A model generated the notes under the pieces. That model was not told the origin of the DNA, did not search any database, and worked only from the letters and a program-made list of their open reading frames with translations. Of a stretch of 64,000 bases of DNA, positions 7,057-44,561 are shown piece after piece. Position 1 is the first letter of the stretch. Each line of letters begins with the position of its first letter. The position numbers were made by a program, and so were the translations under genes. Source of the DNA: an uncultured Thermoanaerobaculia bacterium (lineage in GTDB: Bacteria > Acidobacteriota > Thermoanaerobaculia > Multivoradales > Multivoraceae); NCBI GenBank assembly GCA_951812325.1, contig OX638294.1, positions 1,278,859 to 1,342,858 on the forward strand, given 5' to 3'.

Positions 7057-7253
7057 CGTGGCGTGGCCCGGGGGCCGGTTCCGGGCTGGGTCGGCCAGAC
7101 GGCAAACTATCAGCACGAACCGGCCGCCGCCGGTCGTCCGCCGCCTCCTGGTCGGCATCCGCTCCAACTCCCGGCCCTGGATTTCGTCAAGGTCCAGTAG
7201 AGACCCGACCGGGACCAGCCCATCAAGGACCAGGCGAAAGGGAGTTCAGTACA

Positions 7254-7760: not shown

Positions 7761-7844
7761 GCTCCGTTGCCGACCTCAAAGGGGGTTAGCTCCAGGTTTC
7801 CTGTGCGTGCGTACCGGGCGTGCCCACCGGCCAACTGGCGCCGC

Positions 7845-17633: not shown

Positions 17634-17823
17634 GATCCCCTCTCCATCATTCCGACCTCCCCGCATCTGACGGCAACTGGTGAACGACAGATTGTGACAC
17701 GCGTCCCCGGCCGAATCGGCCCGGGTCGGGCCGATCCCGTCGTTGCCATTGACTTACGCCCTGTTCCCGCTTAGAGTCAGGAAGACGAGCGCGAGCCCCG
17801 ATGCCGGGGGGAGCGGAGACGCG

Positions 17824-18558: not shown

Positions 18559-18575
18559 AGTCAGGGTCAGGGGCG

Positions 18576-18815
18576 ATGAGTCAAGAACGCTTCGGCGGCA
18601 GCTGGACCAGGACGAAGCTCAACGTCCTGCAGCAATACCTGCAGGCGTACACGACCGCCCTCAAGAACCAGCCCTTTCGACTCTGGTACGTCGACGCCTT
18701 CGCAGGAACCGGCACCGTTCATCTGACTTCGGTCCGAGACTCCTTGCAGAGTCCGCGGAGCTCAAACTCGTGCAAGACGTCCATCGCCCTCCGCCGCAAG
18801 TTCCGTCGTTGCTAG
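18576..18815 (+). pseudogene. Truncated N-terminal fragment (80 aa) of the three-Cys-motif partner protein TcmP
   Basis: MSQERFGGSWTRTKLNVLQQYLQAYTTALKNQPFRLWYVDAFAGTGTV... aligns with the N-terminus of the full-length partner at 34483..35577 (WKGYGPFQQVKHELIDAYLKAW...VVYFDTHAGRGSY), then terminates after 80 codons. Confidence 0.6.
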
Positions 18816-22195: not shown

Positions 22196-22257
22196 TCGCC
22201 GGGCGCGCCTGCGGTCTCCTTGGCTCGCACGGCTACGACCCGCTACGCTCGCGCCAA

Positions 22258-25200: not shown

Positions 25201-25635
25201 GCCGGAACGAGTGGACGACCGGTGAACGAGGTGGTAGCGCAGAGGCTCCTGAACGCCGCAGCGCGCGACATCGAGGAACTGCGTCCTCAGCTCGAACCAC
25301 GAAGCCGGGAACTCGCCGCAGTCGCGACGAAGCGGCTCCAGGAGCGCGGCGAGCGAGAGTCTCGTGAACTGCGCGCGATTCTGAAACAGCAGCGCCAGCG
25401 GGTCCGCGACGAACTGCAACTGAGAGACAACCAGTTCGTTCAGCGCACACTCGCCTTCAACCGCGGCGAAGAGCGGCAGTTGCGGGCCGACATGCGTTCC
25501 TGGCGCACGCGACTGGAGCAATTCGACTGCGACTTGGAGCACGAACCCCAACGCATTCGCAACTTCTACGAGGTCCGCGTAGCGCCGCCCGTCGAACCGC
25601 TGGGCATCGTCTACCTATGGCCGGAGACGAACTGA
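22258..25635 (+). CDS. drmD: SNF2-family helicase, DISARM drmD-like (~1125 aa; start tentative GTG 22258)
   Basis: SNF2 N-terminal motifs LDAYQMEPL, ADDTGLGKTIEAG, DEAHHAA, SATPHNG. Helicase C motifs LLATDAAREGLNFQ...FDLPWNPGRIEQRNGRIDR. Long C-terminal coiled-coil extension. Directly upstream of the methyltransferase. Confidence 0.8.
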   Translation: MTPHATTSSTYGDELPEHDPEVGQLVHVRSRRWLVEHVRPGERPGESSIVRLACAEDDAQGEEIEVFWKVEIDRRILKQEGWGELAARGFDTPPRFAAFLHTLRWNCVTATDPDLFQAPFRAGIKLDAYQMEPLRKALRMPRVNLFIADDTGLGKTIEAGLIARELLLRKKVRTIVVSAPSSVLEQWQAEMEERFGLLFEILDRAYFTRIRRERGFGVNPWKTHSRFLVSHNLLRDPTYADPMRAWLGPVLRGSLFILDEAHHAAPSSGGRYGIESKFTRAIRDLSHRFEHRLFLSATPHNGHSNSFSTLLELLDPHRFTRGVGVRSESLDAVMVRRLKEDIREVQGGFPQRNVVPVRIDNLPANQPELELSRLLDEYRTARAERFRKATSSVQAASGLLVVGLQQRLLSSIEAFAVSLRTHRQTVARQRDQELQQQAGAATTTRARTEAQLFVSASGATGADGDQEDEAAWTSEEAEREEARQIETITAATEAAATSLVGAATAEAPDERLWLREKALLDRMEQVAAQARGRPDAKTRRLVDWIRENLCPDLPPLGTALPPGTPPPRWNNRRLLIFTENRVGTKRYLRNMLESAIACSDRAENRIVTIDGHTRGAARREIQRRFNAEPENDPLRILLATDAAREGLNFQAHCTDLFHFDLPWNPGRIEQRNGRIDRKLQPASEVNCHYFVLPQRAEDRVLEVLVEKTETIRKELGSLSRVIDDRIERRLKSGGIPHGTVDRLAARIAAADLQVERKRVAAEELESARQRRSDLQGQINRCQTLLQNSRKWVQFDVEPFRDALSCSLELLGAKPLQATRNERRETRWTFPALDGQTSADPTWARTLDSLRRPRRRNQKLTDWRKEEPPRPIVFEDAGVLTDETVHLHLEQRVAQRLLARFRSQGFLHHDLSRACLAQAVDSIPRVVLLARLSLYGSGAERLHEQVITVAARWVEPSRRTAPLKAYARHAEQRTLDLLEVSLAGTSGRPVNEVVAQRLLNAAARDIEELRPQLEPRSRELAAVATKRLQERGERESRELRAILKQQRQRVRDELQLRDNQFVQRTLAFNRGEERQLRADMRSWRTRLEQFDCDLEHEPQRIRNFYEVRVAPPVEPLGIVYLWPETN

Positions 25636-29977: not shown

Positions 29978-30121
29978 GAAGCCGGGACCGCCCCAGGTCC
30001 AGGGCCGATCACGTCGCGGGCCCGCTTTGCAGTCACCGCTGCCCGTGTGAGAGAGTTGTCCGCAGCAAGCCGACCGGCCCACCAGCGCCGACTCCTCCCC
30101 CACCTTCCCGCGCACCCCGCC

Positions 30122-31117
30122 ATGACTAGCGGCAAGCTCTTGCGCCAACTCATCGTCTCGGGCGCCGATGGCGACCTCGCTGCATTCCGTGCCGCCGCGG
30201 ACGACGTGATCGCCGACGAGCGGCAGAAGCAACACCACCTCCTGGCGAACGACCTCGAGTCCATTCTCTATGGCCGCACTCTCGCTCCCACGTCGCCTGG
30301 CCTGCGGAGGCTCGCCCAGGCGGTGCCCGAAGATCGAGAGCGTGGTTTGGCCTTGCTGTCACTGCGCGAGCCCGTCCGTGGAATGGAGGACGTTGTTCTC
30401 TCAAGCTCAAACCGCACCATCGTCCGGGCCGTCCTTCACGAGCAGAACCGCGAGGAACTGCTTCAAGCGCACGGGCTCCGGCCCGTCGATCGTCTCCTGT
30501 TGTGCGGACCGCCCGGCTGCGGCAAGACGCTGACCGCAGAGGTCATCGCAAATGAGCTCGGCAGACCTCTCGCCATCGTCCGGGTCGACAGCGTCGTGTC
30601 TTCTTTCCTCGGTGAAACCGCAGCCAATCTACGTCGCGTCTTTGACTTCATCGAAACGACGCCGACAGTAGCAGTCTTCGACGAGTTCGACGCCTTGGGC
30701 AAGGAGCGGGACGACTCCTCGGAACACGGCGAGCTGCGCCGGGTTGTCAACGCGGTGCTGCAGATGCTTGACGCATACGACGGCCGCAGCCTCATCGTCG
30801 CCGCCACCAATCACCAATCCATGCTCGACTCGGCCGTCTGGCGCCGTTTTGAGGAGATCCTCTATCTGAGGCTGCCGACCGCAACGCAGATTCGGGAGCT
30901 CCTCCGCGTCAAGCTGCGCGGCGTACGCCGAGCCTTCGACATCGACACGGTCGCCGTTGAGTCGCTCTTCCCTAATAGTACGCACGCCGACGTCGAGCGC
31001 GTGCTTCGCCGAGCCGTCAAGGAAATGGTCCTGAGCGGTGAAGGTCGCCTTGGCCTGAACCACATCCGCGGGGCCGTGCGCCGAGAGAAGGCGCGGCGTC
31101 AACCTGGGCGCATTTGA
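30122..31117 (+). CDS. ietA: AAA+ ATPase, IetA-like (332 aa from ATG 30122)
   Basis: LLCGPPGCGKT Walker A, VAVFDEFDAL Walker B, AATN sensor 1. Immediately followed by an S8 peptidase gene (IetAS architecture). Confidence 0.75.
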   Translation: MTSGKLLRQLIVSGADGDLAAFRAAADDVIADERQKQHHLLANDLESILYGRTLAPTSPGLRRLAQAVPEDRERGLALLSLREPVRGMEDVVLSSSNRTIVRAVLHEQNREELLQAHGLRPVDRLLLCGPPGCGKTLTAEVIANELGRPLAIVRVDSVVSSFLGETAANLRRVFDFIETTPTVAVFDEFDALGKERDDSSEHGELRRVVNAVLQMLDAYDGRSLIVAATNHQSMLDSAVWRRFEEILYLRLPTATQIRELLRVKLRGVRRAFDIDTVAVESLFPNSTHADVERVLRRAVKEMVLSGEGRLGLNHIRGAVRREKARRQPGRI

Positions 31118-31126
31118 GTCAGGCCA

Positions 31127-33490
31127 TTGCAGCAGCGCCTCTTCGACCACACACAAATGCGCCCGCACCTGCGCCTCAACCGAGAGCGACCAACCACGGA
31201 GCGCCGCCGGCCTGGCGGATTCCCTCCTTCCCCGCCTCCGCCACAGGATCCGCAGGTCCACGGAGCCTCGCTGCACCAGAAACTGCGTTCCGCACGCGAA
31301 AAGGCCGCCGCGGCTCTCGGCGGCTACGACCAGCGACGATTGATCAAGCTCAAGCTGGCAACGCAAGTATCGCCGGAGGCTCTCGCCCGGATTTCGCCCG
31401 GGATGGAGGCAGTAAGCCAGGAGGGCGAGAAGCTGATTCTCTACTTTGCGACCGACGATGCGCTGGAGACGTTTGAGGCGAAACTCTCAAGTCTCAGCCA
31501 GGGCGAGGCGGTAACGCGCAAGGACCTGCTCTACGCTCTCAGCGACATCGATCATTGGAGCGAGGACGACCGCACTGGCCGGAGCCTCAAGCAGCACGGT
31601 CTGCCACCGGGCAAATCGGTAACGCTCGATGTGGAGCTATGGCCGTTGGACAGCCCGCAGGCCCCAACGCTTGCCACTTTCTCCGAGTGGTTGAAGGAAC
31701 GTGGCGGCAAGGTCCTGGACAAGGTGAAGAAGGCCTACCTTGTGCTGTGCCGTGTCCGTTGCGACCGCGCTGTTGCCAGCGACCTGCTTCGACACCGGGA
31801 CGTTCGCACAATCGAACTTCCTCCGCGTCTGGCCCTGCCCCGGGAGATTCTCAGCGCCGATGTCCAGAACATTCCCGAGGTTGAAGCGCCACTGACCGAT
31901 GCACCCGCTATCGTGGTTCTCGACTCCGGCCTCGCTTCCGGACACCCTCTGCTCGCACCCGCCGTGGGAGATTCCCAGAGCTTCCTGCCGGGCAGGTCGG
32001 CAGCCGACGAACACGGCCACGGTACGCTGGTCTCGGGCATCGCCCTGTACGGCGACGTAGCGAAAGGACTGCGCGCCCAGAACCTTGTCCCGGAACTGCG
32101 TCTCTTCAGCGGACGGATACTGGACGAAAAGAACCAGAGCAACGAGCCCCTCGTCGAGAACCAGATCGAAGACGCGGTCCGCTACTTCGCGGATCACTAC
32201 GGCTGCCGCGTGTTCAACCTCTCCTACGGCGATCCCAACAGGTCCTACGAAGGCGGCAGGATCACGGGCCTTGCTGTGACGCTGGATGCGCTGAGTCGAG
32301 AACTCGGTGTGCTGTTCGTTGTACCCACCGGCAACTACGAAGGCGGCCCTGCGGGGCCGGGAGACTGGCGAGAAGACTACCCTGACTATTTGTCTGAGTC
32401 GAGTGCCCGCCTTCTCGACCCGGCCCCCGCCTTGAATGCCCTCACCGTCGGAAGTCTGGCACGTTGGGAGAAAACGATTCAGGCCGAAAGCTATTCAGAC
32501 GATCCCGCCTACCAGCCCATAGCGCGAACCGACGAACCGTCCCCGTTTACCAGAAGCGGCCCTTCGGTGAGAGGCGCGATCAAACCGGATCTCGTCGACT
32601 ACGGTGGCAATCGAGCCGTTGATCTGCGGACGGGAAGCGAACTCACCGTCGGCAGGGCCGGCATCGGCGAACGCTCGACATCTCGCGACTTCGCGGCCGG
32701 CTCGCCATTCGCCGAGGGCTGCGGAACAAGCTTCGCCGCTCCGCGAGTCGCGCATGTTGCCGCGCGCCTGCTGAGGGAGCTTCCAGGCGCAAGCGCCAAT
32801 CTCTGCCGCGCTCTCCTCGTCGCGCACGCGCGGACTCCGCTCGCCTGCGCTGAGCTCTTCTCAGATGACCGCGCCGCCCTCCGCCGAATCACCGGCTACG
32901 GTCTGATCGACCGCTCCGCTCTCTACCGTTCGCCCGACGATTGCGTCTCGCTCTGGGCGACGGAGTCGATGACCAACAATCGGCACCACTTCTACGAGCT
33001 GCCGGTCCCGGATGAGTTCTGGTCTTCAGGTCGCCGCGAGCGGAGGATCACCGTTGCTCTTGCCTACTTTCCCGCTGTGAGGACGACGCGCATCGACTAC
33101 CGCGCGGCGAAAATCAGCTTCAAGTTGGTACAGGCTCAGTCGCTCGACGAAGTCGCCAGCTGGTTCAGCGCGGTGGAAGACAATCCGGGAGCAGCACCGG
33201 TTGCCGAGCTGCCCACGGGAAGGAACATCACGGAGCAAAACCGCTCAAAGGGAACAGTGCAGGCTTCGAGTTGGACCTTTACTGTAGCGAACCGATCCAG
33301 AAAGGAAGGAGCCTGGTTCGTGGTCGTCACGCGCAACGATCCCGCGTGGGGGCAGAACATCTCCAACGAACATGAAGAATACGCTCTCGTAGCCACGATC
33401 GCGGATCGGCAATTTGCCGAGGCGCGACTCTATTCGCAGATCCAGGTCAGACTCCGACAACGCGCTCGAGCTCGAGCGAGCGACCGTTGA
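31127..33490 (+). CDS. ietS: Subtilisin-like S8 serine peptidase, IetS-like (787 aa)
   Basis: Catalytic triad motifs VVLDSG (Asp), HGHGTLVSG (His), GTSFAAPRVAH (Ser). Large N- and C-terminal non-catalytic domains. Confidence 0.8.
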   Translation: MQQRLFDHTQMRPHLRLNRERPTTERRRPGGFPPSPPPPQDPQVHGASLHQKLRSAREKAAAALGGYDQRRLIKLKLATQVSPEALARISPGMEAVSQEGEKLILYFATDDALETFEAKLSSLSQGEAVTRKDLLYALSDIDHWSEDDRTGRSLKQHGLPPGKSVTLDVELWPLDSPQAPTLATFSEWLKERGGKVLDKVKKAYLVLCRVRCDRAVASDLLRHRDVRTIELPPRLALPREILSADVQNIPEVEAPLTDAPAIVVLDSGLASGHPLLAPAVGDSQSFLPGRSAADEHGHGTLVSGIALYGDVAKGLRAQNLVPELRLFSGRILDEKNQSNEPLVENQIEDAVRYFADHYGCRVFNLSYGDPNRSYEGGRITGLAVTLDALSRELGVLFVVPTGNYEGGPAGPGDWREDYPDYLSESSARLLDPAPALNALTVGSLARWEKTIQAESYSDDPAYQPIARTDEPSPFTRSGPSVRGAIKPDLVDYGGNRAVDLRTGSELTVGRAGIGERSTSRDFAAGSPFAEGCGTSFAAPRVAHVAARLLRELPGASANLCRALLVAHARTPLACAELFSDDRAALRRITGYGLIDRSALYRSPDDCVSLWATESMTNNRHHFYELPVPDEFWSSGRRERRITVALAYFPAVRTTRIDYRAAKISFKLVQAQSLDEVASWFSAVEDNPGAAPVAELPTGRNITEQNRSKGTVQASSWTFTVANRSRKEGAWFVVVTRNDPAWGQNISNEHEEYALVATIADRQFAEARLYSQIQVRLRQRARARASDR

Positions 33491-33775
33491 CCAATATGCC
33501 GCCCTCAACCTCGCCCTTCCCGTTCAACCGCCACCGTCTCGCCGCCTCTGATCTTCTCGGAGTCCGTTCCGGCACAACATCGAGGCCCGGGCCGACAAGC
33601 GCGGGCAAGTGACGGCGTTCATTTTCGACAGCCTGACCGTCATGCCGCGCCCCGTCCCCCACAGCGAACTCAAGAGGCTGGATTGCGTCGGTCCCGCGAA
33701 CTACGTTGCGGCAGAACCGATTTCACACGATCAACTCCTGAGGATCGTTCAGGCGGGCTTCGGAGAATCGGGCTC

Positions 33776-34264
33776 ATGATCGACATCCTCATGTCGATCA
33801 AGCCGCCGTACGTCGACATGATCGTCTCCGGCTCCAAGACGGTCGAGATCCGGAAGCGAGCTGTCCGGGTACCAGCCGGAGCAAGAATCTGGATCTACGC
33901 AACCAGTCCACGGCGGCAGGTAGTCGCATCCGCCCGGCTCGAAGAAGTCGCCCTCGACACGGGGGGCGAGATCTGGCGCACCTTCGGCGACCGGGCCGGC
34001 ATCGACCGCCTCGACTTCAACGCCTACGTTGGAGACAGCAGACTCGTCGCCGCACTATCCCTGACCGACGTCACCGCACTCGCCGCGCCACTATGCCCTC
34101 GCAGCGAGACGCCGGCATTCCGCCCGCCGCAGTCCTACTCGTTCCTTCGTGATGCCGAACTTCTGGCAGCCTTGGAGGCAAGGCATAGCACAGAGCGTTC
34201 AGCAGACGAGAACCAGATCAGTCCTCCGGCGCAACCAACCGAAACGGCCTTCGCAACCCCGTAG
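33776..34264 (+). CDS. ASCH (PUA-like) domain protein, ~162 aa from ATG 33776
   Basis: MIDILMSIKPPYVDMIVSGSKTVEIRKRAV...IWIYAT matches the ASCH beta-barrel N-terminus. Confidence 0.6.
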   Translation: MIDILMSIKPPYVDMIVSGSKTVEIRKRAVRVPAGARIWIYATSPRRQVVASARLEEVALDTGGEIWRTFGDRAGIDRLDFNAYVGDSRLVAALSLTDVTALAAPLCPRSETPAFRPPQSYSFLRDAELLAALEARHSTERSADENQISPPAQPTETAFATP

Positions 34265-34482
34265 ATCGGGCCGTGGACTCCCGGTCCACGAGGTCCGGCG
34301 CAACTCCTCACGCTCCGCCGTCGTGCTACCGTCGCTCCGACAGCCATCGTCCCCCGGTCCGCCTGGGCCACACAGTTGCGGATCGACTGCGCTGCCGGCT
34401 CGAACTCGCGAGCCAGTTGGTCCGGGGTTGACTGCCGAGATCTTTTCGAACAATGAAGCCGCTGGAAATTCCAAGAAACTCC

Positions 34483-35577
34483 CTAATGAAACAAGGCCTC
34501 CTGCTTCGGGAGAAGCGACAGTGAGCCTCCGCGCCGCCTGAGCCGCTTTTGCTGCTTTAGTTCCGCCTCTACATCTCCAAGGTGCTTCCACCTCCAGATC
34601 TTCGAGCGCAGCTCCTCCTTCAGGACGTCCCTCAAGACCGGCCCCGCCTGGAGCCTGGCCACCAACCACTGACGCAGCGGCGCCAGATCGGGCTTCTCTT
34701 CGATCAAAAGGAACTGGTTCGGGTTCTCGGATCGCCGCACGCTCATGCTGCCGCCGGGGCAAACCGTCCAGACACACTCCTTCATCAGGTCCCGTCCGTC
34801 ATCGTGATTCGTCAGATGGAGCAGAAAGAAGCGCACCGCATCGCCACCCGAGACCATCCGCACATGGGTCCACCACTTCGCGCCTACTCGATCAGCCAGC
34901 AGCTTCGCGCCCTGGTCGGCCCTCTCAACCATCGTTTCGCCCCGGATGTTCCGCCACGCATCGCCTCCGAAGAGCCGGTCGAGATTCTCGGCCTGACCGT
35001 GTCCAGCTTTGAGCTCCTGGTGCATCGCCATGTCGAGTTCGCGCCACATCACGTTGACGAAGAGCTCGACGCGCTCAAACTCCATGATCTCCGCGAGCAG
35101 GTCGCCCGGCAAACTGAAGCCATACGGATCCACGAAGAAAAAGGCAGGCGCCATTTGTTGACCCGCTGACTTCAGGGCATCGACCCCCCGGCGCAACACC
35201 TCGAACGCGTCGCCCGGCTCGACATCGACGACGATCCGGCGGGGCAGATCTTCAATCCGCTCAACCTCTCCCCTCAGCTCGGACGCATTCTGTTCATCCA
35301 GCTCCAGAAACACGAACCGGAACTCGGAGTTCTCCAAGAGCTGGTCTCTCGCCGTGTGGTCAAGCAGCGTCCTCAGCGCCACGAGTGGCGAACCGGGATT
35401 GTCGCCTGCATAGCTACCACGCCCGGCGTGAGTGTCGAAGTACACGACTTTGCCGGACCACAAGCCGAGTTTGGGAAACCAGGCTTTCAGGTAGGCGTCA
35501 ATCAGCTCGTGCTTGACCTGCTGGAAAGGACCGTAGCCTTTCCAATGATCCGGCCGTGGATCGCCGACTCCGTTCAC
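34483..35577 (-). CDS. Three-Cys-motif partner protein TcmP (full length, ~364 aa), probable GTG start at 35575-35577, 12 nt after the upstream gene's stop
   Basis: N-terminus HWKGYGPFQQVKHELIDAYLKAW...VVYFDTHAGRGSYAG and FFFVDPYGF motif. Located directly downstream of the Gp37/Gp68 gene (the pairing that defines this family). Confidence 0.7.
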   Translation of the reverse strand: MNGVGDPRPDHWKGYGPFQQVKHELIDAYLKAWFPKLGLWSGKVVYFDTHAGRGSYAGDNPGSPLVALRTLLDHTARDQLLENSEFRFVFLELDEQNASELRGEVERIEDLPRRIVVDVEPGDAFEVLRRGVDALKSAGQQMAPAFFFVDPYGFSLPGDLLAEIMEFERVELFVNVMWRELDMAMHQELKAGHGQAENLDRLFGGDAWRNIRGETMVERADQGAKLLADRVGAKWWTHVRMVSGGDAVRFFLLHLTNHDDGRDLMKECVWTVCPGGSMSVRRSENPNQFLLIEEKPDLAPLRQWLVARLQAGPVLRDVLKEELRSKIWRWKHLGDVEAELKQQKRLRRRGGSLSLLPKQEALFH

Positions 35578-35590
35578 AGCCCTCGGGTCC

Positions 35591-36316
35591 TCAGTTCGCC
35601 GGGAACTCGTCGTAAGTCCTACCCTTGAGCAGGCGCCCATTCAGATGCTTCCGCGGCCCTCCCCACTGCTTGAAGAAGAAGGGGACGTCATCTCGCCGGC
35701 ACTGAAGCAGGACATTGATCACCCACGCTTCCAGCATGGGCCGCGCTCCGGGACCGCTCTCGCCGCCGACGATGACCCAGTCGATGCCCGTCAGGTCGAA
35801 CTTCTCCAGATCCTCAAGGAGCGGTTCGATTGAGGCAAAGCGAACCGCTGCCGGCGTCTGCCGTAACGCCTGCAGCCGCGGCAAGCCCTGCCGTCGGTTC
35901 TCGACGCTCACTCCAAACCAGACGTTCGGCAACTCACCCATCCAGGAAAGAGGCCCCACAAGAAGCTCGTGCATTCGCTCGTGTCTCTTCGTGAGCACCT
36001 GGTAGGTGTGCCGCTGGACTTCGCTCATCACCCGGCCCACCTCGGCGATGTAGCTCACGGGAACCTGCGGATGGAAGAGGTCGCTCATCGAGTTCACGAA
36101 CACGCGGCGAGGCAGACGCCAGCGACGCGGCTGATCGAGCTTGGCCGGTACCAGGCGAAGGTCGAAACCCTGCTCGAAGGGGTGCCTCGGGACGCCACGG
36201 AAGCGCTCCGAGAAGCGCTCTGCGTAGCAATGTGCGCAGCCTGCACTGACCTTCGTGCAGCCGAGCACCGGGTTCCAGGTCGCGTCGGTCCATTCGATCG
36301 GACTCTTCTCTGACAT
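35591..36316 (-). CDS. Three-Cys-motif protein of the phage Gp37/Gp68 family (PF07505/DUF5131), copy B, 241 aa
   Basis: MSEKSPIEWTDATWNPVLGCTKVSAGCAHCYAERF...FFFKQWGG. Full-length paralog of copy A. Confidence 0.85.
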   Translation of the reverse strand: MSEKSPIEWTDATWNPVLGCTKVSAGCAHCYAERFSERFRGVPRHPFEQGFDLRLVPAKLDQPRRWRLPRRVFVNSMSDLFHPQVPVSYIAEVGRVMSEVQRHTYQVLTKRHERMHELLVGPLSWMGELPNVWFGVSVENRRQGLPRLQALRQTPAAVRFASIEPLLEDLEKFDLTGIDWVIVGGESGPGARPMLEAWVINVLLQCRRDDVPFFFKQWGGPRKHLNGRLLKGRTYDEFPAN

Positions 36317-36483
36317 GCAGGCTCTCCAGGTGCCGGGCCTAACGCATCGCCAAGCCCAGCCCGTTATACAGGATCATGCATGAAAGCGCAAATCGGGCGT
36401 AAACGGAGCCGCACCATCTTCACCCGTCAACCTCGACCAACTCTGGCCTTTTCGCTTCACTATCCGCCTGCGCTCGGGCCGAA

Positions 36484-36790
36484 TCAGTGCCCGAGCCTTC
36501 TCGACAGGGAGTCCCGCTCGACCGTCAACTCCCCGATCCTCGCGTGCGAGTCCCTGATCCTTTCCTCGTGGTCACGGCGACGCTCCGGCCCCGGCCGAGA
36601 AGGTCTCCTGCATCCCCTCGACCGCCGTCCCCTTCCAACTGCCGACCTGGTCCGGGTGAACGCCGTGCCGCGACGCAATCGCCGAAATCGGCTTCCCCTC
36701 GCGCAGCGCCTCAAGCGCCACCTTCGACTTGAAAGCCGCCGTGAACTTCGGACGCTTCCTCTTCCTCCTGGCTACTCCTCTCGGTTGAGG
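36484..36790 (-). mobile_element. Remnant of an IS3-family transposase orfA (HTH part), frameshifted, no start codon and no orfB
   Basis: Minus-strand translation RPKFTAAFKSKVALEALREGKPISAIASRHGVHPDQVGSWK... then frameshift, then ...ERIRDSHARIGELTVERDSLSRRLGH (IS3 OrfA C-terminal leucine-zipper motif LHAKIGQLTVENDFL). Confidence 0.6.
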
Positions 36791-36910
36791 AGTACACCTT
36801 AGCCACCTGTCCAGTTCTTCGGGACCACCTCATCGTTCAGGTTCGGACGCGAAGAGTGAGGTGGTGAGCGCGGTTGACGCCCGCCGCACCAATGTGTGAC
36901 ATTCGTGCAC

Positions 36911-37150
36911 ATGGAACAGATCGGCATTCGCGAACTCCATCTGAAGACCGGCGAGTGGGTGCGGCGAGCCGCCAGAGGACGGGGCGTCGTCGTCACGGAG
37001 CGTGGCCGCCCGGTGGCTTCGCTTGTACCGTTCCGCGACGACGCACTGGGGGTTTCCTTCGCCGACCGTCAACTGCTGCCCGAGTTCGAGGCCCTGCCGG
37101 AGATCCGCGGCGACTCGGCCGCCGGTATCTCGGAGGACCGGGACCGCTAG
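36911..37150 (+). CDS. Phd/YefM-family type II antitoxin (79 aa)
   Basis: MEQIGIRELHLKTGEWVRRAARGRGVVVTERGRPVASLVPF classic Phd/YefM N-terminus. Stop TAG overlaps the GTG of the downstream PIN fragment (taGTG). Confidence 0.8.
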   Translation: MEQIGIRELHLKTGEWVRRAARGRGVVVTERGRPVASLVPFRDDALGVSFADRQLLPEFEALPEIRGDSAAGISEDRDR

Positions 37151-37268
37151 TGGCGTACTTCGACACCGCCTATCTGGTCAAGTGCTACGTGAAGGAGGAA
37201 GGGTGGGACAGCGTCCGAGCGTTGGCTGCCGAGCGCGGATGGGTTGCCTGCTCGGTGTTTGGGCGCCC
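37150..37268 (+). pseudogene. Truncated VapC (PIN-domain) toxin, N-terminal ~35 aa only
   Basis: VAYFDTAYLVKCYVKEEGWDSVRALAAERG matches the VapC N-terminus including the first catalytic Asp (FDT). Downstream sequence in this frame is low-complexity and ends at 37374 (75 codons, versus ~130 for an intact PIN toxin). Confidence 0.5.
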
Positions 37269-37397
37269 GACGCTCTCAAGGTCGACCTCGTCGGCCCCGG
37301 CGCCGGCCACGAACTCGCTCGCGAGCGGCTGCCCGCAAGCGAAGCGCCCTCGAAGTGGTCTCGCCGCTTCCTGATTCCATCCCGCACGCCGCCGGTT
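37269..37397 (+). pseudogene. Decayed 5' fragment of a second drmA allele (43 codons)
   Basis: Frame +1 of 37002 reads DALKVDLVGPGAGHELARERLPASEAPSKWSRRFLIPSRTPPV, compared with DrmA residues 20-63 EAIELDLIGPWRGHELARERLPIFEAPSNWYLTGFLIPTGTPPE (about 24/43 identical; nucleotide identity ~70%). Confidence 0.55.
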
Positions 37398-37591
37398 ACG
37401 CGGGCTCAACTCCTGCCGCCAACCGTCAGACAGCCATCGTTGCTGCCCCCCAACGACTAGACTCGCCGCATGAGCGGGCGAGACCTCAGGAGCCCCAAGC
37501 CGACTGTGAGGCGCCTGGTTCACCGCACCGCCTCCAGTCAGTCGGTCGTCAGAGCCCGGCGGTCCCGCCAGCGCGGCCCCAGAGAGCCAGC

Positions 37592-38797
37592 GTGACCGCC
37601 GACCGCCGCCTGTTGACTCGCGTTGCGCTCCGCAACTACAAGAGCATCGCCGCATGCGACGTGTCACCAGCGAAGCTGTGCTTCCTCGTGGGTCCGAACG
37701 GCTCCGGCAAGAGCAACTTCCTCGACGCGCTTCGGTTCATCGCCGAGTCTCTTCGGTCTTCGATGGATCAGGCGCTGCTCGCACGCGGAGGCATCAACGA
37801 GGTGCGGCGGCGCTCTGGTGGCCACCCGACGCACTTCACCATCCGTGTCGAGTTCGCCCTCGACGCATCGCGAGGCCACTATGCGTTCACTGTCGGGTCC
37901 AAACGCCAGGCCCGCTACCAGGTCCAGCGCGAAGAGTGTCTCGTCGTACCGACGAACGGGCAGAGCGCTCACTTCTTCAAGGTCGAGAGCGGGCGGGTTA
38001 CCAAGACGACCCTCTCGCCAGCGCCAGCGGCACTGCCCGATCGCCTGTACCTTGTCAATGTCTCCGGTCTTGAGGCGTTTCGGCCCGTCTACGACGCCCT
38101 CTCGAGGACTGGCTTCTACAACCTGAACCCGGCAGCCATACGCGACCTTCAGCCGCCCGACACGGGCGAACTCCTCAAGCGGGACGGGAGCAACATCGCA
38201 AGTGTCCTGGCCAACCTCGCCACCAGTTCGCCTCCGTCGATGCGGAGGATCGAGGAGTACCTCGGGACCGTCGTTCCTGGCATGGCGGGCGTCGGTCGTC
38301 ATCGGCTCGGTCCCAGAGAGACGCTCGAGTTCCGGCAGGAGGTGCGCGGTGCCGAGCATCCCTGGCGCTTCCTCGCCAACAACATGTCCGACGGAACGCT
38401 TCGCGCACTCGGCCTGCTCGTCGCGCTCTTTCAGGGCGCGAGCAACGGCGCCGCAGGGCCCGGACTGGTGGGCATCGAAGAGCCGGAAGTCGCGCTTCAC
38501 CCCGCAGCCGTGGAAGTCCTCATCGATGCGCTGCTTGACGCTGCTGAACACGCCCAGATACTTGTCACGAGCCACAGCACCGAACTGCTCGATCACCCGG
38601 AAATTCGGGACGACTCCATCCTTGCCGTGGTAGCAGAGCACGGCGAGAGCCGCATCGGTCCGCTGGACGAGGTCGGGCGGTCGGCGTTGAAGAAGCACCT
38701 CTTCACCGCCGGCGAACTGCTCAGAATGCACCAACTCGATCCGGATCCAGTGCTCTCGAAACCCGGGCAAATCAGGCTCTTCGGCCCCGAGCCCTGA
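37592..38797 (+). CDS. Solitary AAA_21/ABC-type ATPase (OLD/PtuA/AriA-like), ~401 aa from GTG 37592
   Basis: LTRVALRNYKSI...FLVGPNGSGKSNFLDALRFI Walker A, LVGIEEPEVALHP Walker B, ILVTSHS D-loop/H-loop. No nuclease partner gene adjacent. Confidence 0.75.
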   Translation: MTADRRLLTRVALRNYKSIAACDVSPAKLCFLVGPNGSGKSNFLDALRFIAESLRSSMDQALLARGGINEVRRRSGGHPTHFTIRVEFALDASRGHYAFTVGSKRQARYQVQREECLVVPTNGQSAHFFKVESGRVTKTTLSPAPAALPDRLYLVNVSGLEAFRPVYDALSRTGFYNLNPAAIRDLQPPDTGELLKRDGSNIASVLANLATSSPPSMRRIEEYLGTVVPGMAGVGRHRLGPRETLEFRQEVRGAEHPWRFLANNMSDGTLRALGLLVALFQGASNGAAGPGLVGIEEPEVALHPAAVEVLIDALLDAAEHAQILVTSHSTELLDHPEIRDDSILAVVAEHGESRIGPLDEVGRSALKKHLFTAGELLRMHQLDPDPVLSKPGQIRLFGPEP

Positions 38798-38937
38798 CCG
38801 TGCTCAAGATCGCCTCCATACCAGGCCAGATTCACCGCTGCCTTCGACCTGAGCGCCGCGCGGTCGGCGCCCTCGTTCGACAAGCTGTGGCGTGACGTAA
38901 CCTCCCTGCTCGTTCCGCCGGCAACGATCATCTCCGA

Positions 38938-41900
38938 ATGAGCGAACCGAACAACCACGACGCTGCGGCCGTGACGTCTCTCGATGTCCGCCGGACCCTC
39001 GTCGAAGCGATCGAACTCGACCTCATCGGCCCATGGCGAGGTCACGAGCTTGCGCGGGAGCGGCTGCCGATCTTCGAGGCGCCATCCAACTGGTACCTCA
39101 CCGGCTTCCTGATTCCGACCGGAACGCCGCCGGAACTGAGCCGGGACGACGAGCAGGACGACGGCGGGCCTGACGAGACGCCCGAGCGACCCGGCCTCGC
39201 CGAGGAATCGACGGAGGGCCGGATGGCAGCGAAGAAGCTCTTCTTCCCTTCCTCGATGGGGCTGAGCTTCCTCGCAACCGCGGACAGCCGGCTCGATGTC
39301 TCCGTTCGCTGGGGCGACTACGAACTGGTCGCAACCGCCACCGATGCTGTGGAAGGCGACGGCGGCAACGACAAGGCCGGGGCGCAATACTGGCAGCGGA
39401 GCGCCAGGGAGGAAGCCGTAGAGATCGCCCCGCAGACGGCGGAGCGGCCTGTCCACGACGTGCCCGGCTCGGGCGGGCTGAGGCTTCACGTCGAGCAGAG
39501 GCCCATCTCCGAGATCGCCTCCATCCCCGAAGGCACGCGGGCTGTCAGCGTGTTCCTCGTGAACGAGCGGGAGCCTGCGACTTCGCTCCAGGACACCGAG
39601 CCGACCTACGCGTTCCAGGCCGAAGTCGAGATCCGCAGCGAACAGCCGTTCGTGCCGAGACCGGACCCACGCTCGGCGGAGACCGATGACTGGGATGAAC
39701 AGGTCGCGGCCCTTCACTACCTGGACGCCCCGAGCTACGCCACCGGTCACAACGTCGGCGCCACCTGGGACGTCGACAGCGACGGGAAGTGCCGGAAGAT
39801 CCGCACGACCTGGATGCCCCGGGCGGAGGTCGAGAAGACGGAGACCAGCCAACCGGACGGGGTCGACCTGTCGATGGACCGGCTCGGCCAGCTTGCCGGC
39901 GCCGACGATGCGGACAGGACCCTGCGACCGCTCGTCGCCGCTTACCGCGAGTGGATCAACGAACAGCGCAGGGCGCTCGAGGAAGTTCCCGAAGAGCACG
40001 CGGAGACCGCGGTCGAACTCCTCGATCAGGCTGAGTTCGCCGCCTCGCGGATGGAGCGAGGGATCGCGACGCTTCAAGGCGACGAACAGGCGCTCGACGC
40101 CTTCCGCCTGGCGAATCGCGCCGTGGCCCAGGCTCTTCGGCGCCGAACCCCTGAGGTCTTCGAAGATGCGGCGCCCCGATGGCGGGCATTCCAGCTCGCC
40201 TTCATCCTGCTGAACCTCGCGCCGCTCGCGGACCCCGCCGACCCGCACCGGGAGATGGTCGACCTGCTCTTCTTTCCCACCGGCGGCGGCAAGACGGAGG
40301 CCTACCTGGGTCTCGCCGCCTTCGCGATCGTGCTGAGGCGGCTCCGGAACCCGGAGGCGGGCGGGCGGGCAGGCGCGGGCGTCTCTGTTGTCATGCGCTA
40401 CACGCTGAGGCTGCTGACCCTCGATCAACTCTCGCGCGCCGCGGGCCTGATCTGCGCGCTGGAACTGGAGCGGGCCGACGCGCCCGAGCGCTACGGCGAG
40501 TGGCCGTTCGAGATCGGCCTGTGGGTCGGCAGGGCGGCGACACCGAACCACATGGGGCGAAAGGGCGCCGAACCGCCCGGTTCCGCCCGCCAGAAGGTGC
40601 GGCGCTTCCAGGCGAAACCCTGCTACGAGCCGTCACCCGTCCCCATTGAGGACTGCCCCTGGTGCGGTACGAAGTTCAAGCCCGGCTCCTTCACGCTGCA
40701 ACCGAACGACGACACGCCGACCAACCTGCGCGTGATCTGCGCAAACTGGGAGTGCGAGTTCTCCGGCGACCGCGCGCTCCCCATCGTCGCCGTCGACGAG
40801 CCGTTGTACCGCCGCCTGCCCTGTTTTCTCGTTGCCACGGTGGACAAGTTCGCGGCCCTGCCGTGGGAGGCCCGCGCCGGCGCGCTCCTCGGCGGCGCCG
40901 ACCGACACGATGCGGAGGGCTTCTACGGCGCGGCGGCGCCGAGCCGGGGCCGGCCGCTGCCCTCGCCCCTGCCGCCGCCCGACCTCATCGTCCAGGACGA
41001 ACTCCACCTGATCTCCGGACCCCTGGGATCGATGGCCGGCCTCTACGAGACGGCGGTCGAGGCGCTGGCGCTCCGCGGTTCCGGCAGCCGCGGCGCGAAG
41101 CCGAAGATCGTCGCCTCGACCGCGACCACCCGGCGGGCGCAGGAACAGATCCGGGCCCTCTTCGGCCGTCAGATGACCCGCGTCTTCCCGCCGCCCGGGC
41201 CCTCGCGGCGCGACTCGTTCTTCTCCCAGGTCGTGCCGGCGAGCATGAAGCCGGCTCGGCTATACCTCGGCATCGCGTCGCCGGGCAGGAATGCGAAGGT
41301 CCAGATGCGGCGCGTTCTGCTGCCGCTGATGGCGGCGGCGCAGCAGGCCTTCCGGAACGCGGGCGGCCACGACAACGAGAACAACGCCGCCGACCCGTAC
41401 ATGACGGTGCTTGCCTACTTCAACAGCCTTCGCGAACTCGGCGGTGCGCGGCGCATCGTCGAGGAGGAGGTCCAGAACACGCTGGGCCGCTACGGAGCAA
41501 GGCGCAGACTGAACCAGGAGAGGAGGTACTTCCGCGATCGCGGGCGTCTCTACGAGCCGCTGGAGTTGACCTCCCGGGTCTCGACGGCCCAGGTTGCCGC
41601 TGCGCGACGGCGGCTTGGTCAGCCTTTCCATGCGACGGACCGGGTCGACGTGGCCCTGGCGACGAACATGATCTCCGTCGGCCTCGACATCCAGCGACTC
41701 GGGCTCATGGTCGTCATGGGTCAGCCGAAGACGACCGCCGAGTACATCCAGGCGACCAGCCGGGTCGGCCGCGCAGACGCGAAGCCCGGTCTCGTCATCA
41801 CCCTGCTCAACGCCCACAAGCCGCGCGACCGCTCCCACTACGAACGCTTCCGGCACTACCACGAGACCTTCTACCGCGCGGTCGAGGCTGGAAGCGTCAC

Positions 41901-42360
41901 GCCGTTCGCGGCCCGGGCGTTGGACCGGGGAATGGCCGGAACCCTCGTCGCGCTCGCTCGGCACGCGGAACCGTCTCTGACGCCGGCCACCGCTCCGCCA
42001 GGGCTCGCCGAGGTCCGCGCGCAGCTCGAGGCACTGCTCCTCGATGCGTTCTCCGAGCGGCTCAGCCGCCAGAACATGCCGGAAGCCGAGCGGGAAGAGA
42101 AGCTCGGCTCGGTTCGTCGGCGCGTAGGCGACCTGCTCGACTCCTGGCAGTACGTCGTGGACGACTATCGGGACACCGGCACCGCGGTGAAGTACCAGCA
42201 GTACGAGCGGGAGCAGGGCAAACCACTGCTCCGCGAGATGTTGGACACGGACTTCGAGTCACCCCATCACAAGAAGTTCCGAGTCAACCGCTCGCTTCGT
42301 GACGTGGAGCCCCAAGTGAACCTGTTCATCACGAAGCCGGCCGGCGGCGGAGCGGATTGA
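38938..42360 (+). CDS. drmA: DISARM drmA-like helicase (1140 aa)
   Basis: Helicase motif I LLFFPTGGGKTEAYLG, motif II VQDELHLISGP (DExH), zinc-ribbon DCPWCGTKFKP, helicase C motifs (QATSRVGRADAKPGLVI). 4-nt overlap with the following DUF1998 gene. Confidence 0.8.
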   Translation: MSEPNNHDAAAVTSLDVRRTLVEAIELDLIGPWRGHELARERLPIFEAPSNWYLTGFLIPTGTPPELSRDDEQDDGGPDETPERPGLAEESTEGRMAAKKLFFPSSMGLSFLATADSRLDVSVRWGDYELVATATDAVEGDGGNDKAGAQYWQRSAREEAVEIAPQTAERPVHDVPGSGGLRLHVEQRPISEIASIPEGTRAVSVFLVNEREPATSLQDTEPTYAFQAEVEIRSEQPFVPRPDPRSAETDDWDEQVAALHYLDAPSYATGHNVGATWDVDSDGKCRKIRTTWMPRAEVEKTETSQPDGVDLSMDRLGQLAGADDADRTLRPLVAAYREWINEQRRALEEVPEEHAETAVELLDQAEFAASRMERGIATLQGDEQALDAFRLANRAVAQALRRRTPEVFEDAAPRWRAFQLAFILLNLAPLADPADPHREMVDLLFFPTGGGKTEAYLGLAAFAIVLRRLRNPEAGGRAGAGVSVVMRYTLRLLTLDQLSRAAGLICALELERADAPERYGEWPFEIGLWVGRAATPNHMGRKGAEPPGSARQKVRRFQAKPCYEPSPVPIEDCPWCGTKFKPGSFTLQPNDDTPTNLRVICANWECEFSGDRALPIVAVDEPLYRRLPCFLVATVDKFAALPWEARAGALLGGADRHDAEGFYGAAAPSRGRPLPSPLPPPDLIVQDELHLISGPLGSMAGLYETAVEALALRGSGSRGAKPKIVASTATTRRAQEQIRALFGRQMTRVFPPPGPSRRDSFFSQVVPASMKPARLYLGIASPGRNAKVQMRRVLLPLMAAAQQAFRNAGGHDNENNAADPYMTVLAYFNSLRELGGARRIVEEEVQNTLGRYGARRRLNQERRYFRDRGRLYEPLELTSRVSTAQVAAARRRLGQPFHATDRVDVALATNMISVGLDIQRLGLMVVMGQPKTTAEYIQATSRVGRADAKPGLVITLLNAHKPRDRSHYERFRHYHETFYRAVEAGSVTPFAARALDRGMAGTLVALARHAEPSLTPATAPPGLAEVRAQLEALLLDAFSERLSRQNMPEAEREEKLGSVRRRVGDLLDSWQYVVDDYRDTGTAVKYQQYEREQGKPLLREMLDTDFESPHHKKFRVNRSLRDVEPQVNLFITKPAGGGAD

Positions 42361-44204
42361 TGGCCAAGGCCAAGGGAACAGGTGCGCCTACCGGCAGCAT
42401 TCGCCGCAGTCAGGTCATCACGACCTACGGACCGGGCGCACTGATCGACCTGCCCCACGACTCCGCCATCGTCGGCGGGCTGGATTTCTGGCCATGGCAT
42501 GGTTCTCTCGAGCCCATCGACGAACCCAGGCTGAGCACCAGGCTGCGCAGCCTGACGGGCGGCGCGCTGCCGGCCCTCCACGCCCCGCCCGCCGCTTCGG
42601 ACCGGCCCGGCGACGTCTCGGCCGGCATCGAGGCGCCCCGGTTTCCCGAGTGGTTCGTCGTGCAGCGGGAGGAGTCCTCAACCGACCATGAGGGCGGCCG
42701 CCGTTCGCGCCGCCTGGTTCACCGCAAGTCGCTCGACGAACGACGTAGACACAAGAACCTGGTCCATGGCGGCCAGCCGGTCGTCGCGATCCGCTTCGTG
42801 CGCGGCTGCCCGCGCGGCCATGTCGACGACATCGACTGGTGGAGCTTTGTCCACCGCGGCGTCAGGGACTGCCAGGGCGAACTGGGAATCGAGGAACAGG
42901 GCACCGGCGGAGACCTCTCGAACCTCTTCGTTCGCTGCAGTTGCGGCAACTCGCGGGGTCTGCACGAAGCCAAGGAGATGGACGACCGGCCGCTCGGTCA
43001 CTGCAGCGGCGCCCGACCGTGGCTGGGCCGACACGCCAACGAGGAGTGCGGCGAGCCGGCGCGGCTGCTGATCCGGACCGCGACGAACGCGTGGTTTCCG
43101 CAGATCGTCACGGTGCTGTCGCTGCCGAAGCCGAGCGAGGCGGTCGACGGCATCGTCGCCGAACTGTGGGACGACCTGGAGATCGTCACCGAGCCGGGCG
43201 AACTTCGGTTCCTGAAGAAGAAGCCGAGAATCGCGGCCGCCCTGCACGGCGTCGACGACGCCGACGTGTTGGCGGCAATCGAACGCCGGAAGGCGGGCGA
43301 CCTGGACGACCGACCAGTCAAGTTCGCCGAACTGGACGCCCTGCTGACGGCGCCGGAAGGCTACGACGACGACGTGCCGATCGACGACCGATTCCACGCC
43401 CGGCGCCTGCCGGAGTCAGTATGGAGGGAGGGCGCACGGTCCTTCGCGGACCGGATAGCTGCCGTCGTGCAGGTTCACCGCCTGCGCGAGGTTTCGGCAC
43501 TCACCGGTTTCACCCGCTTCGAGGCGCCGACACCGGACATCCTGGGGGAGGTCGACACGGATGTGGAGCGCGCCGCGCTCGCGCTGGAGCCCGCCTGGTT
43601 CCCGGCCGTGGAGAACCGCGGCGAAGGCGTCTTCGTCCAGTTGGCGACCACAGCCGTTGCGGAGTGGTGCGGCCGCGAGGATGTCCGGACGCGCTGCGCC
43701 ACTCTGGCCGCGGGCCACGAGCGCCGTGAAGCGGAACGACCGCCGGGTGCGAAGCGGCGGCCGTTTCCGGGCGGCCCCTACATTCTCCTGCACACGCTGT
43801 CCCACCTGCTGATCACGTCCCTGGCGCTGCGCTGCGGCTATCCCGCGGCATCGATTCGGGAGCGCGTCTACGTCGACGAAGCCGAGAAGAGGTACGGACT
43901 CCTCCTCTACACCGCGAGCGCCGACGCCGAGGGAACGCTGGGCGGCCTCGTACAGCAGGCCCGGAGCATCAAAGAGCATCTCCGCCACGCTCTCCTCCTC
44001 GGCCAACTCTGTTCGAACGACCCGGTCTGTGCCCACCACCGACCCGACCACAGCGCCGAGAAACGGTGGCTTCACGGCGCCGCCTGCCACGGCTGCACGC
44101 TGATCGCCGAGACCTCCTGCGAGATGCGCAACGACCATCTCGACCGCAGCCTGGTGGCGCGGATCATCGGCGGCGGCGCGGGCTTCTTCGGTCCGATCGA
44201 GTGA
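42357..44204 (+). CDS. drmB: DISARM drmB-like DUF1998 protein (615 aa)
   Basis: C-terminal DUF1998 signature LLHTLSHLLI...ACHGCTLIAETSCEMRNDHLDRSLV (Cys cluster plus N-x2-LDR) and internal Cys-rich zinc-binding region (RGCPRGH...CSCGNSRGLHEAKEMDDRPLGHC). Confidence 0.85.
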   Translation: MMAKAKGTGAPTGSIRRSQVITTYGPGALIDLPHDSAIVGGLDFWPWHGSLEPIDEPRLSTRLRSLTGGALPALHAPPAASDRPGDVSAGIEAPRFPEWFVVQREESSTDHEGGRRSRRLVHRKSLDERRRHKNLVHGGQPVVAIRFVRGCPRGHVDDIDWWSFVHRGVRDCQGELGIEEQGTGGDLSNLFVRCSCGNSRGLHEAKEMDDRPLGHCSGARPWLGRHANEECGEPARLLIRTATNAWFPQIVTVLSLPKPSEAVDGIVAELWDDLEIVTEPGELRFLKKKPRIAAALHGVDDADVLAAIERRKAGDLDDRPVKFAELDALLTAPEGYDDDVPIDDRFHARRLPESVWREGARSFADRIAAVVQVHRLREVSALTGFTRFEAPTPDILGEVDTDVERAALALEPAWFPAVENRGEGVFVQLATTAVAEWCGREDVRTRCATLAAGHERREAERPPGAKRRPFPGGPYILLHTLSHLLITSLALRCGYPAASIRERVYVDEAEKRYGLLLYTASADAEGTLGGLVQQARSIKEHLRHALLLGQLCSNDPVCAHHRPDHSAEKRWLHGAACHGCTLIAETSCEMRNDHLDRSLVARIIGGGAGFFGPIE

Positions 44205-44561
44205 CGATGTACCGGGCCGCACAAAACAGCAATCCAGGAGGTTGCCGGATCCGCCTGCCTTCTCGCGGAAACCGCCTGGCCGCAAACCGACAGGCGTGAA
44301 GGACCAGGCATTCAACGCTCAGGTCGAACTTCCGGCGCATTTCCGGAACTCGCTCGCGGCCGCGCTGGACGCCGGTTTGCTCCGGTTCGACTTCACCGCG
44401 GCTCCAGGTAGAGTTCCGCCACGAAGTTGTCCCGGTCGTCGAGTCGTTCGAGCGGCGTCACGGCCGCTACGCCAACAGCCCGGCCGCCGCCGACGCGCGC
44501 CGCGAACGGAGGGAAGGCCGCGGGACCGGCCCGGAACACGACCAGGGAACAAAGGAGAACG

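Follow-up and report, generated by a model that had tools for sequence, protein, structure and literature searches.

How did an intact antitoxin gene, a truncated toxin gene, a headless piece of drmA and an ATPase gene without an intact partner come to stand in a row before a complete drmA? The question is raised by positions 36911-38797 of the window, by which we mean the whole 64-kb stretch analysed here (GC content about 68%; contig OX638294.1, from an uncultured Thermoanaerobaculia bacterium). A first-pass annotation of this DNA had listed the four elements, and profile, blastn and tblastn searches place all of them where it did. They occupy the slot adjoining drmA in a class 1 DISARM locus, within its cargo bay. 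Comparison with related loci makes it highly probable that the interval is the fossil junction of two alternative modules, each comprising cargo and drmA, which was later eroded by deletions.

The drmA fragment carries this argument. It lies at 37268-37397 on the forward strand (third frame), spans codons 23-65 and has no start codon. By blastn it is 91.6% identical over 131 nucleotides (nt) to the 5' end of drmA in a related locus, L005 (E=4.5e-48; L-numbers are our handles for loci and contigs), and 90.8% identical to that of L098. Identity to L004 is 83.7% (E=2.7e-32), with DrmA residues 23-65 of L004 matched by tblastn (E=9e-14), and to the resident drmA only 76.3% over 118 nt (E=6.6e-14). 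Residues DALKVDLVGPGAGHELARERLP of the stub are identical to those of the L005 and L098 alleles. On these scores the similarity, proposed earlier for 43 residues, is far beyond chance against the resident gene and against those of relatives; the length stands, but the residue numbering given for it (20-63) was off by two to three.

In L005, phd is followed by vapC and, 10 nt after vapC, by drmA, with neither an ATPase gene nor a DUF4276 gene. L098 and L099 share this layout, with intact genes and DrmC present. The phd-vapC block is 96-97% identical between the window and L005 and L098-L102 (96% for L005), whereas drmA-drmB of L005 is only 74% identical beyond the 5' end. The comparison supports a stub that is the remnant of an older, different drmA allele, which would once have stood directly after phd-vapC as it still does in L005, L098 and L099. 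With this synteny, the view of the interval as a recombination scar, in which an ATPase-(DUF4276)-drmA-drmB module follows the stub of an older allele, holds.

The second module is represented by the ATPase gene and by what is left of its partner. The ATPase (37592-38797, forward strand, 401 residues) is intact and matches PADLOC HEC-01A over residues 2-397 (PDLC04178, E=3.6e-160). HEC-01 (Hma-embedded candidate 1; Payne et al.) consists of an ABC-type ATPase and a TOPRIM-like protein (bioRxiv 10.1101/2024.01.29.577857). The label 'OLD/PtuA-like' used in the first-pass annotation proved too loose, as the match to PADLOC Old is partial only (E=8.4e-18), the score against NF041760 PtuA is 26.6 bits where the cutoff is 500, and no TOPRIM or HNH partner accompanies the gene; AAA_21 (E=1.2e-29), AAA_15 and SMC_N are matched too. 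The HEC-01A family is highly conserved (thousands of proteins at least 70% identical), and the window protein keeps all positions that are invariant among 33 homologs.

No intact partner gene exists in the 140 nt between the ATPase gene and drmA, so that the window does not hold HEC-01 as a two-gene system. In the relatives L001, L004, L006 and L096 the ATPase gene is directly followed by a DUF4276 gene (196-200 residues) and then by drmA, and the DUF4276 protein of L006 is PADLOC HEC-01B (PDLC04196, E=3.1e-67). The window retains a 142-nt remnant of this TOPRIM-like gene (38800-38941, forward strand; DUF4276 residues 160-194 by tblastn, 84-86%), in which codons 1-7 (38800-38819) run directly, with a shift of frame, into about the last 40 codons (38820-38941). 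The internal deletion is 458 nt, window 38819|38820 corresponding to L006 10311|10770. That the ATPase lost an effector partner, one of two options offered earlier, is thereby confirmed, and the loss is recent, L006 being only about 2% diverged. The HEC-01B stop overlaps the drmA start as ATGA in L006, L096, L004, L008 and L015, so that translation of HEC-01AB and drmA is predicted to be coupled in several loci that have diverged from one another.

The stub is collinear with L005 drmA up to ...ACGCCGCCGG (window 37397) and diverges after it, and homology to the L004 region upstream of the ATPase gene resumes at about 37447 and includes the conserved motif ACGACTAGACTCNCCNCATGA; the module junction is therefore placed at 37397|37398. 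The alignment leaves a filler (37398-37446) that has no similarity to an insertion sequence (IS) end. It is followed by the conserved upstream region of the HEC-01 module (37447-37591, forward strand), whose left homology edge by blastn lies at 37453 against L004 and at 37447 against L100. L006 still has the full 65-codon stub with its start codon (8694-8889), inside a 71-codon open reading frame (ORF) made up of drmA codons 1-65 and a short tail. A search of metagenome contigs with the 20-mer across the stub::HEC-01 junction returned 20 matches, none of them related by blastn.

The conserved upstream region contains the motif ACGACTAGACTCGCCGCATGA, which the window shares with L006, L004, L096 and L100 at this place ahead of HEC-01A, although overall identity is only about 72%. 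Inside the motif, an ATG opens a 41-codon ORF whose TGA overlaps the GTG start of the ATPase gene. L004 has the same arrangement of start and stop, the peptide being poorly conserved. Judged by its sequence, the region 37447-37595 may be a promoter or a leader.

To the left of the stub, phd (36911-37150, forward strand) is intact. Its 79-residue product scores 27.3 bits against TIGR01552 (cutoff 20.8) and 24.6 bits against PF02604 (E=2.2e-5), under the gathering score of 29.8. The gene is 98.75% identical to that of L006, the protein is 97% identical to Phd proteins that adjoin an intact VapC, and the exact window protein occurs on at least 22 public contigs. The truncated toxin gene, vapC' (37150-37267, forward strand), has a GTG start that overlaps the phd stop and retains codons 1-39 of a 147-codon PIN toxin gene. 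These 39 residues are identical to the start of the 147-residue VapC of L006 (PF01850, E=3.4e-6); similarity ends at 37267, and the ORF stays open, out of the vapC frame, to 37374. No PIN match to vapC' was found in Pfam. The truncation reported earlier stands, at 39 codons in place of about 35 residues. VapC is intact in L005, in L006 and in all 10 other listed contigs with an identical Phd, the two genes adjoining in 10 of 10 places among the matches listed.

Compared with L006 (8358-8758), the window has a gap of 401 nt at 37267|37268, which takes vapC codons 40-147, the 10 intergenic nt and stub codons 1-22; no microhomology was seen at this junction. A sequencing frameshift near 37260 that hid a full-length VapC, for which the first-pass annotation had allowed, is not borne out, since the truncation is a clean gap. 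We infer that Phd is an orphan antitoxin and that both the stub and vapC', with one of the PIN acidic residues left, are dead. L098 was considered as a second case of vapC loss and set aside; its vapC is intact, merely uncalled. Elsewhere, in a chromosomal setting unrelated to DISARM, L094 (6001-6419) encodes a Phd homolog of 77% identity, with only 179 nt where L091-L093 have a 146-residue PIN gene, and is an independent orphan Phd after vapC loss.

Undamaged versions of the chimera exist. Over window positions 29991-44222 L006 matches at about 97.7% identity, and its gene order is IetA, IetS, ASCH, TcmP and DUF5131 (both on the reverse strand), HNH, an IS3 orfA remnant, Phd, the 147-residue VapC, the stub ORF, ATPase, DUF4276, DrmA and DrmB. 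The undamaged arrangement (phd, full vapC, 65-codon stub, ATPase, DUF4276, drmA) is kept in L006 and L095. The joining of the modules had been blamed earlier for the destruction of vapC. This part of the earlier reading falls: because L006 and L095 share the junction with an intact vapC, the toxin gene was lost in the separate and later 401-nt deletion.

L004, L096, L008, L013 and L015 have HEC-01AB alone in the slot before drmA. In L096 a reverse-strand DUF5131 gene is followed by ATPase, DUF4276, DrmA, DrmB, DrmC and MIOX, with no phd, vapC or stub, and the right flank (GRDB, SelR, carboxylesterase, RRM protein) is that of the window, at 81-90% identity. L095, which is the extended L007 contig, combines the intact chimera and DrmC with a right flank 91% identical to the beta-lactamase flank of L005. 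The same chimera therefore sits in two genomic backbones, the flank of L095 being L005-like and that of the window L096-like.

A further deletion lies after drmB. The remnant of the PLD nuclease DrmC (44296-44400, forward strand; matching DrmC residues 1-19 onward) comprises about the first 35 codons, the HKD region being gone, and the window lacks the sequence corresponding to L096 12044-13532 (about 1.5 kb), which holds the remainder of drmC together with the MIOX gene beside it. L095 and L096 keep an intact DrmC. The independent contig L097, assembled from the sample that also yielded L006, covers window positions 38748-59008 (20 kb) at 99.44% identity and shares both the HEC-01B junction and the DrmC gap. 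An artefact is unlikely for these two deletions, because L097 reproduces them base for base. On sequence comparison, the deletions of about 401 nt, 458 nt and about 1.5 kb are later events in the lineage of the window. In a single sample, ERZ18545498, strains that have the effector genes occur alongside strains that lack them.

We propose the following course of events. The slot before drmA exists in two types, one with phd-vapC and drmA 10 nt on, the other with HEC-01A, HEC-01B and drmA joined by the ATGA overlap. The lineage of the window carries both modules, joined after codon 65 of the phd-vapC-linked drmA (37397|37398). The join would have arisen by recombination between diverged DISARM loci, of the homology-facilitated illegitimate type, with at least one non-homologous end inside drmA. 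Homologous recombination would then have moved the chimera between two genomic backbones. Three later deletions struck the lineage of the window, of 401 nt (vapC codons 40-147 with stub codons 1-22), of 458 nt (the core of HEC-01B) and of about 1.5 kb (DrmC from about codon 36, with MIOX).

Several observations weigh against this account or complicate it. L097 begins downstream of the vapC'::stub junction, so that no second assembly covers that junction; a search for it in metagenome contigs gave 0 matches, and the 10 other listed contigs with an identical Phd all have an intact VapC, as noted above. The ATPase is 72.5% (about 70%) identical to that of L096, against about 85-90% from the ATPase/DUF4276 boundary onward (89.8% for the DUF4276 3' end, DrmA and DrmB), and L006 shows the same jump against L096. 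This jump calls for at least one further exchange. When L095 is set against L005, the replaced segment looks non-homologous at both of its ends, which is unusual for a single event. As to the direction and order of transfer, HEC-01-drmABC may have entered a phd-vapC-drmA locus, the phd-vapC-stub block may have entered a HEC-01-DISARM locus, or both may have happened in turn.

The strongest rival takes up the second of these directions, and we give it a substantial chance, somewhat short of even. Here a block of IS3, phd, vapC and drmA codons 1-65 would have been inserted, possibly with the aid of IS3, upstream of the HEC-01 promoter in a locus that was already of the type DUF5131 (reverse strand), HEC-01AB, drmABC, so that phd-vapC-drmA was never invaded by a HEC-01-drmA module. 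L096, with the right flank of the window, and L004 both have the reverse-strand DUF5131 directly before HEC-01A and lack phd, vapC and the stub; the L005-homologous block is bordered on its left by the IS3 orfA remnant, and Phd proteins identical to that of the window are common in the other backbone. Yet L095 carries the chimera in the L005-type backbone, to which phd-vapC-drmA is native, as would be expected if the chimera had formed there; on the right of the block no second IS end can be detected, and the two directions could have been taken in succession.

The IS3-family remnant itself (36453-36839, reverse strand) is an orfA reduced to its helix-turn-helix region, the translation of 36572-36793 matching PF01527 HTH_Tnp_1 (E=5.7e-10). 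Its outer end is probably near 36839, to judge from the sequence, and the same remnant is present in L006 and L007. Neither a DDE orfB nor a second IS end was found there, and the element does not qualify as an IS3 insertion sequence. A composite IS3 transposon was considered and rejected, as the best match of the 49-nt filler at 37398-37446 to the IS3 end is a 7-mer, a score reached by 150 of 500 shuffles.

A second alternative concerns present function. Without its TOPRIM-like effector, HEC-01A, a putative sensor-type ABC ATPase, leaves a HEC-01 that is most likely inactive here, judging from gene content. The ATPase gene nevertheless shows no decay: all invariant residues are kept, and its differences from L006 comprise 15 synonymous and 5 non-synonymous codons, the most constrained ratio in the island, so that inactivity is something we infer from the lost partner. 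Improbably, but not negligibly so, the lone HEC-01A would still work, as a single-gene abortive-infection factor or an accessory of DrmAB, loss of HEC-01B having been tolerated or selected. Besides the intact ORF, this would fit L069, in which an intact HEC-01A abuts drmA with no HEC-01B, and the coupling of HEC-01AB to drmA in diverged loci. Weighing the other way, the nuclease is the effector in PARIS and Gabija, which are also systems of an ATPase and a TOPRIM protein. HEC-01 is visibly decayed in L062, L064, L075 and L077, and the deletion in the window is so recent that the few non-synonymous changes may pre-date it. HEC-01 is moreover defined by two genes, and the pair gave no protection in its only published test, in E. 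coli (bioRxiv 10.1101/2024.01.29.577857). DISARM itself, reduced to DrmD, DrmMI, DrmA and DrmB, may still work, because DrmC is reported to be dispensable (PMC9142583; bioRxiv 10.1101/2021.12.28.474362).

It is very improbable that vapC and DUF4276 are in truth intact and that the scar is an artefact of sequencing or assembly. The relatives come from long-read metagenome assemblies that contain frameshifts, and the vapC' junction is the one seen in a single assembly; but what separates the sequences is a set of clean gaps (401, 458 and about 1490 nt) and not single-base indels, and two of the three recur base for base in L097. The drmA frameshifts are single ones, at about L005 9010 (near codon 107) and about L007 3880 (near codon 85), and could be long-read assembly errors or real pseudogenes. 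Least credible of all is a decayed tandem duplication of the 5' end of the resident drmA. Direct repeats do flank the ATPase gene, and stubs commonly arise when a duplicated copy is partly deleted, but the stub is far closer to L005 drmA (91.6%) than to the resident gene (76%), many of its differences from the resident copy are synonymous, and L005, L098 and L099 have the same phd-vapC directly before that very allele.

The junction of two cargo and drmA modules can be set against DISARM loci at large. The survey took one genome per species, scanned with a DrmA alignment, and gave 80 species-level loci. At this level the nearest relatives of the window by DrmA are Candidatus Multivorans and Thermoanaerobaculia metagenome-assembled genomes, at 72-74% amino acid identity. 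Where the end of DrmMI and the start of DrmA are both visible (60 loci), the two genes abut with a gap of less than 300 nt in 19 and lie 0.8 to more than 9.6 kb apart in 41. The gap is therefore a regular cargo bay, 41 of the 60 loci carrying cargo there; defence genes embedded in DISARM, BREX and Hma systems have been described (bioRxiv 10.1101/2024.01.29.577857). HEC-01A occurs in 11 of the 80 loci, together with an intact HEC-01B in seven.

Three further loci among the 80 have a drmA 5' stub upstream of the complete gene: L056 (repeat of 361 nt, 88.9% identity, stub of about 105 codons, with a 264-nt drmMI 3' stub as well), L065 (219 nt, 75.8%, about 74 codons) and L075 (818 nt, 78.7%, about 265 codons). 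The cargo between stub and drmA differs among them. A site-specific integration that brings in a new drmA 5' end was considered and rejected: the last codon of the stub varies from locus to locus (65, about 74, about 105 and about 265), and there is no integrase. A mirror image of the chimera is found in L100 and L101, where HEC-01A and HEC-01B are followed by an L004-like drmA stub of about 100-116 codons, phd-vapC and chromosomal flank, drmABC being absent.

The mirror-image form is also seen in L106-L108, and in L100 it lies around positions 7540-10684. L102, L105 and L109-L112 have kept phd-vapC and lost all of drmABC. The L056 repeats of the drmMI 3' stub (4587-4849 and 8525-8788) and of the drmA 5' stub (9909-10269 and 11603-11963) bracket an old ThsB-like TIR gene. 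L056 and L065 (3221-3976 in L065) share a conserved protein of 246 or 251 residues that neither Pfam nor PADLOC recognises; its gene lies between the drmA stub and drmA and is read from the other strand. In two Spirochaetia loci, L075 (7891-9959) and L062 (9063-9972), the slot before drmA holds tandem paralogs of about 120 residues that start MGWPSVYAWQDELSA..., then a 182-residue protein with no family match; the C-terminus of HEC-01A in L062 is fused to one of these paralogs.

A wider generalisation, which we put forward as tentative and rather doubtful, would be that drmA 5' stubs and drmMI 3' stubs are general footprints of cargo bays rebuilt by the pasting of modules, made of cargo and a core gene and taken from diverged DISARM loci, with a non-homologous end inside the resident core gene. 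It would have happened repeatedly and across phyla, as in the lineage of the window, L056/L065, L075 and the mirror-image form of L100/L101. In the lineage of the window, the deletions that followed would have hit each nuclease or toxin effector (VapC, HEC-01B, DrmC, perhaps HNH) and spared the sensor or antitoxin partners, which would suggest selection against self-damage.

The remaining genes of the window place the scar within the island. The SNF2 helicase DrmD (20977-25635, forward strand; PADLOC PDLC02621, E=6.9e-300; the true start possibly later) and the N6-adenine methylase DrmMI (25694-29977, forward strand; PDLC02643, 1298 bits) make up the left half of the DISARM locus and bound the cargo bay on that side; the bay holds about 9 kb between drmMI and drmA. 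On the right, the helicase DrmA (38938-42360, forward strand, starting with ATG at 38938; NF038325, 1157 bits, cutoff 950) and the DUF1998/MZB protein DrmB (42357-44204, forward strand; NF038324, 544.9 bits, cutoff 240) are intact. Features beyond the first-pass annotation are thus DrmD and DrmMI upstream, the IS3 orfA remnant ahead of phd, the 142-nt HEC-01B remnant and the DrmC remnant after drmB. Between the window and L006, DrmB differs by 34 non-synonymous and 24 synonymous codons and IetS by 22 and 11, an excess of non-synonymous changes that may reflect diversifying or relaxed selection.

The left part of the bay holds IetA (30047-31117), IetS (31127-33490), ASCH/PDC-M11B (33683-34264), TcmP (PDC-M30/M41 with DUF5131; 34483-35640, reverse strand) and DUF5131 (35591-36316, reverse strand), all recognised by PADLOC, Pfam and NCBIfam matches. 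By blastn this block (30047-36316) is 97.8% identical to L006 1-6426. In place of a 34-nt filler at 36419-36452, delimited by blastn and by display of the junction against L006, L006 has 1151 nt (6427-7577) with a gene for a 212-residue HNH endonuclease (PF01844, E=7e-7). The difference is either a deletion in the window or an insertion in L006. In the former case, each of the four losses specific to the lineage (VapC, HEC-01B, DrmC and HNH) would have hit a nuclease or toxin gene and left its partners intact.

A second copy of DUF5131 lies upstream of DrmD, where 17743-18815 is 77% identical in nucleotides over 710 nt to 35592-36300 but oriented the other way round; a TcmP-like (PDC-M41A) signal follows immediately downstream of this second copy. 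The inverted DUF5131 repeats flank most of the DISARM island. The ORF at 18895-20787, matched by PADLOC to mad3/mad8, was set aside as an ordinary transporter ATPase with a double ABC_tran/oligo_HPY architecture in Pfam.

The locus is a well-resolved natural case of cargo exchange and loss in a multi-gene defence system, for which public assemblies supply every intermediate, from phd-vapC-drmA and HEC-01AB-drmA through the chimera in its intact state to its eroded form. For annotators it holds a warning that a solitary AAA_21 ATPase beside DISARM can be all that remains of a two-gene system. The locus also supplies concrete constructs for asking if HEC-01 depends on its TOPRIM-like partner and if it works together with DrmAB.

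All components are of known kinds, and the scar is ordinary defence-island decay and no new kind of system. Homology-facilitated illegitimate recombination, and the gene-end stubs left by allelic replacement, are general concepts. The window resembles them in that a stub of the old allele adjoins a complete diverged allele, the junction has no homology and the ends of stubs vary by lineage; it differs in that the mechanism is here a proposed one and in the non-homologous look of both ends of the replaced tract in L095. The phd and vapC' genes have the antitoxin-then-toxin order and the stop/start overlap of Phd/YefM-VapC (PIN) type II toxin-antitoxin pairs, of which relatives keep the full PIN toxin. 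In the window, however, 39 of 147 toxin codons remain and the antitoxin is an orphan, and in some genomes the pair is DISARM cargo.

The ATPase shares the ABC-type fold class of OLD, Gabija GajA, PARIS AriA/AriB and the retron Eco8 effector, and the partner in relatives is likewise TOPRIM-like. In the window, however, no TOPRIM domain is fused to it or stands next to it, and its scores against Old, GajA, AriA and PtuA, the first three being weaker PADLOC matches, are far below that against HEC-01A. The likeness to HEC-01 is closer, as the ATPase is a full-length HEC-01A, the next gene in close relatives is HEC-01B, and the pair is embedded in a helicase-methylase defence system as described for these candidates. 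In the window, by contrast, only 142 nt of HEC-01B are left, out of frame, class 1 DISARM takes the place of Hma as host system, and coupling to drmA is seen in several diverged loci. The host system compares with the class 1 DISARM of Serratia sp. SCBI (drmD, drmMI, drmA, drmB, drmC), having DrmD, DrmMI, a short-form DrmA (NF038325) and DrmB in canonical order on one strand. It departs from that arrangement in the cargo of about 9 kb between drmMI and drmA, in a DrmC cut to about 35 codons and in the stub of a second drmA allele within the cargo.

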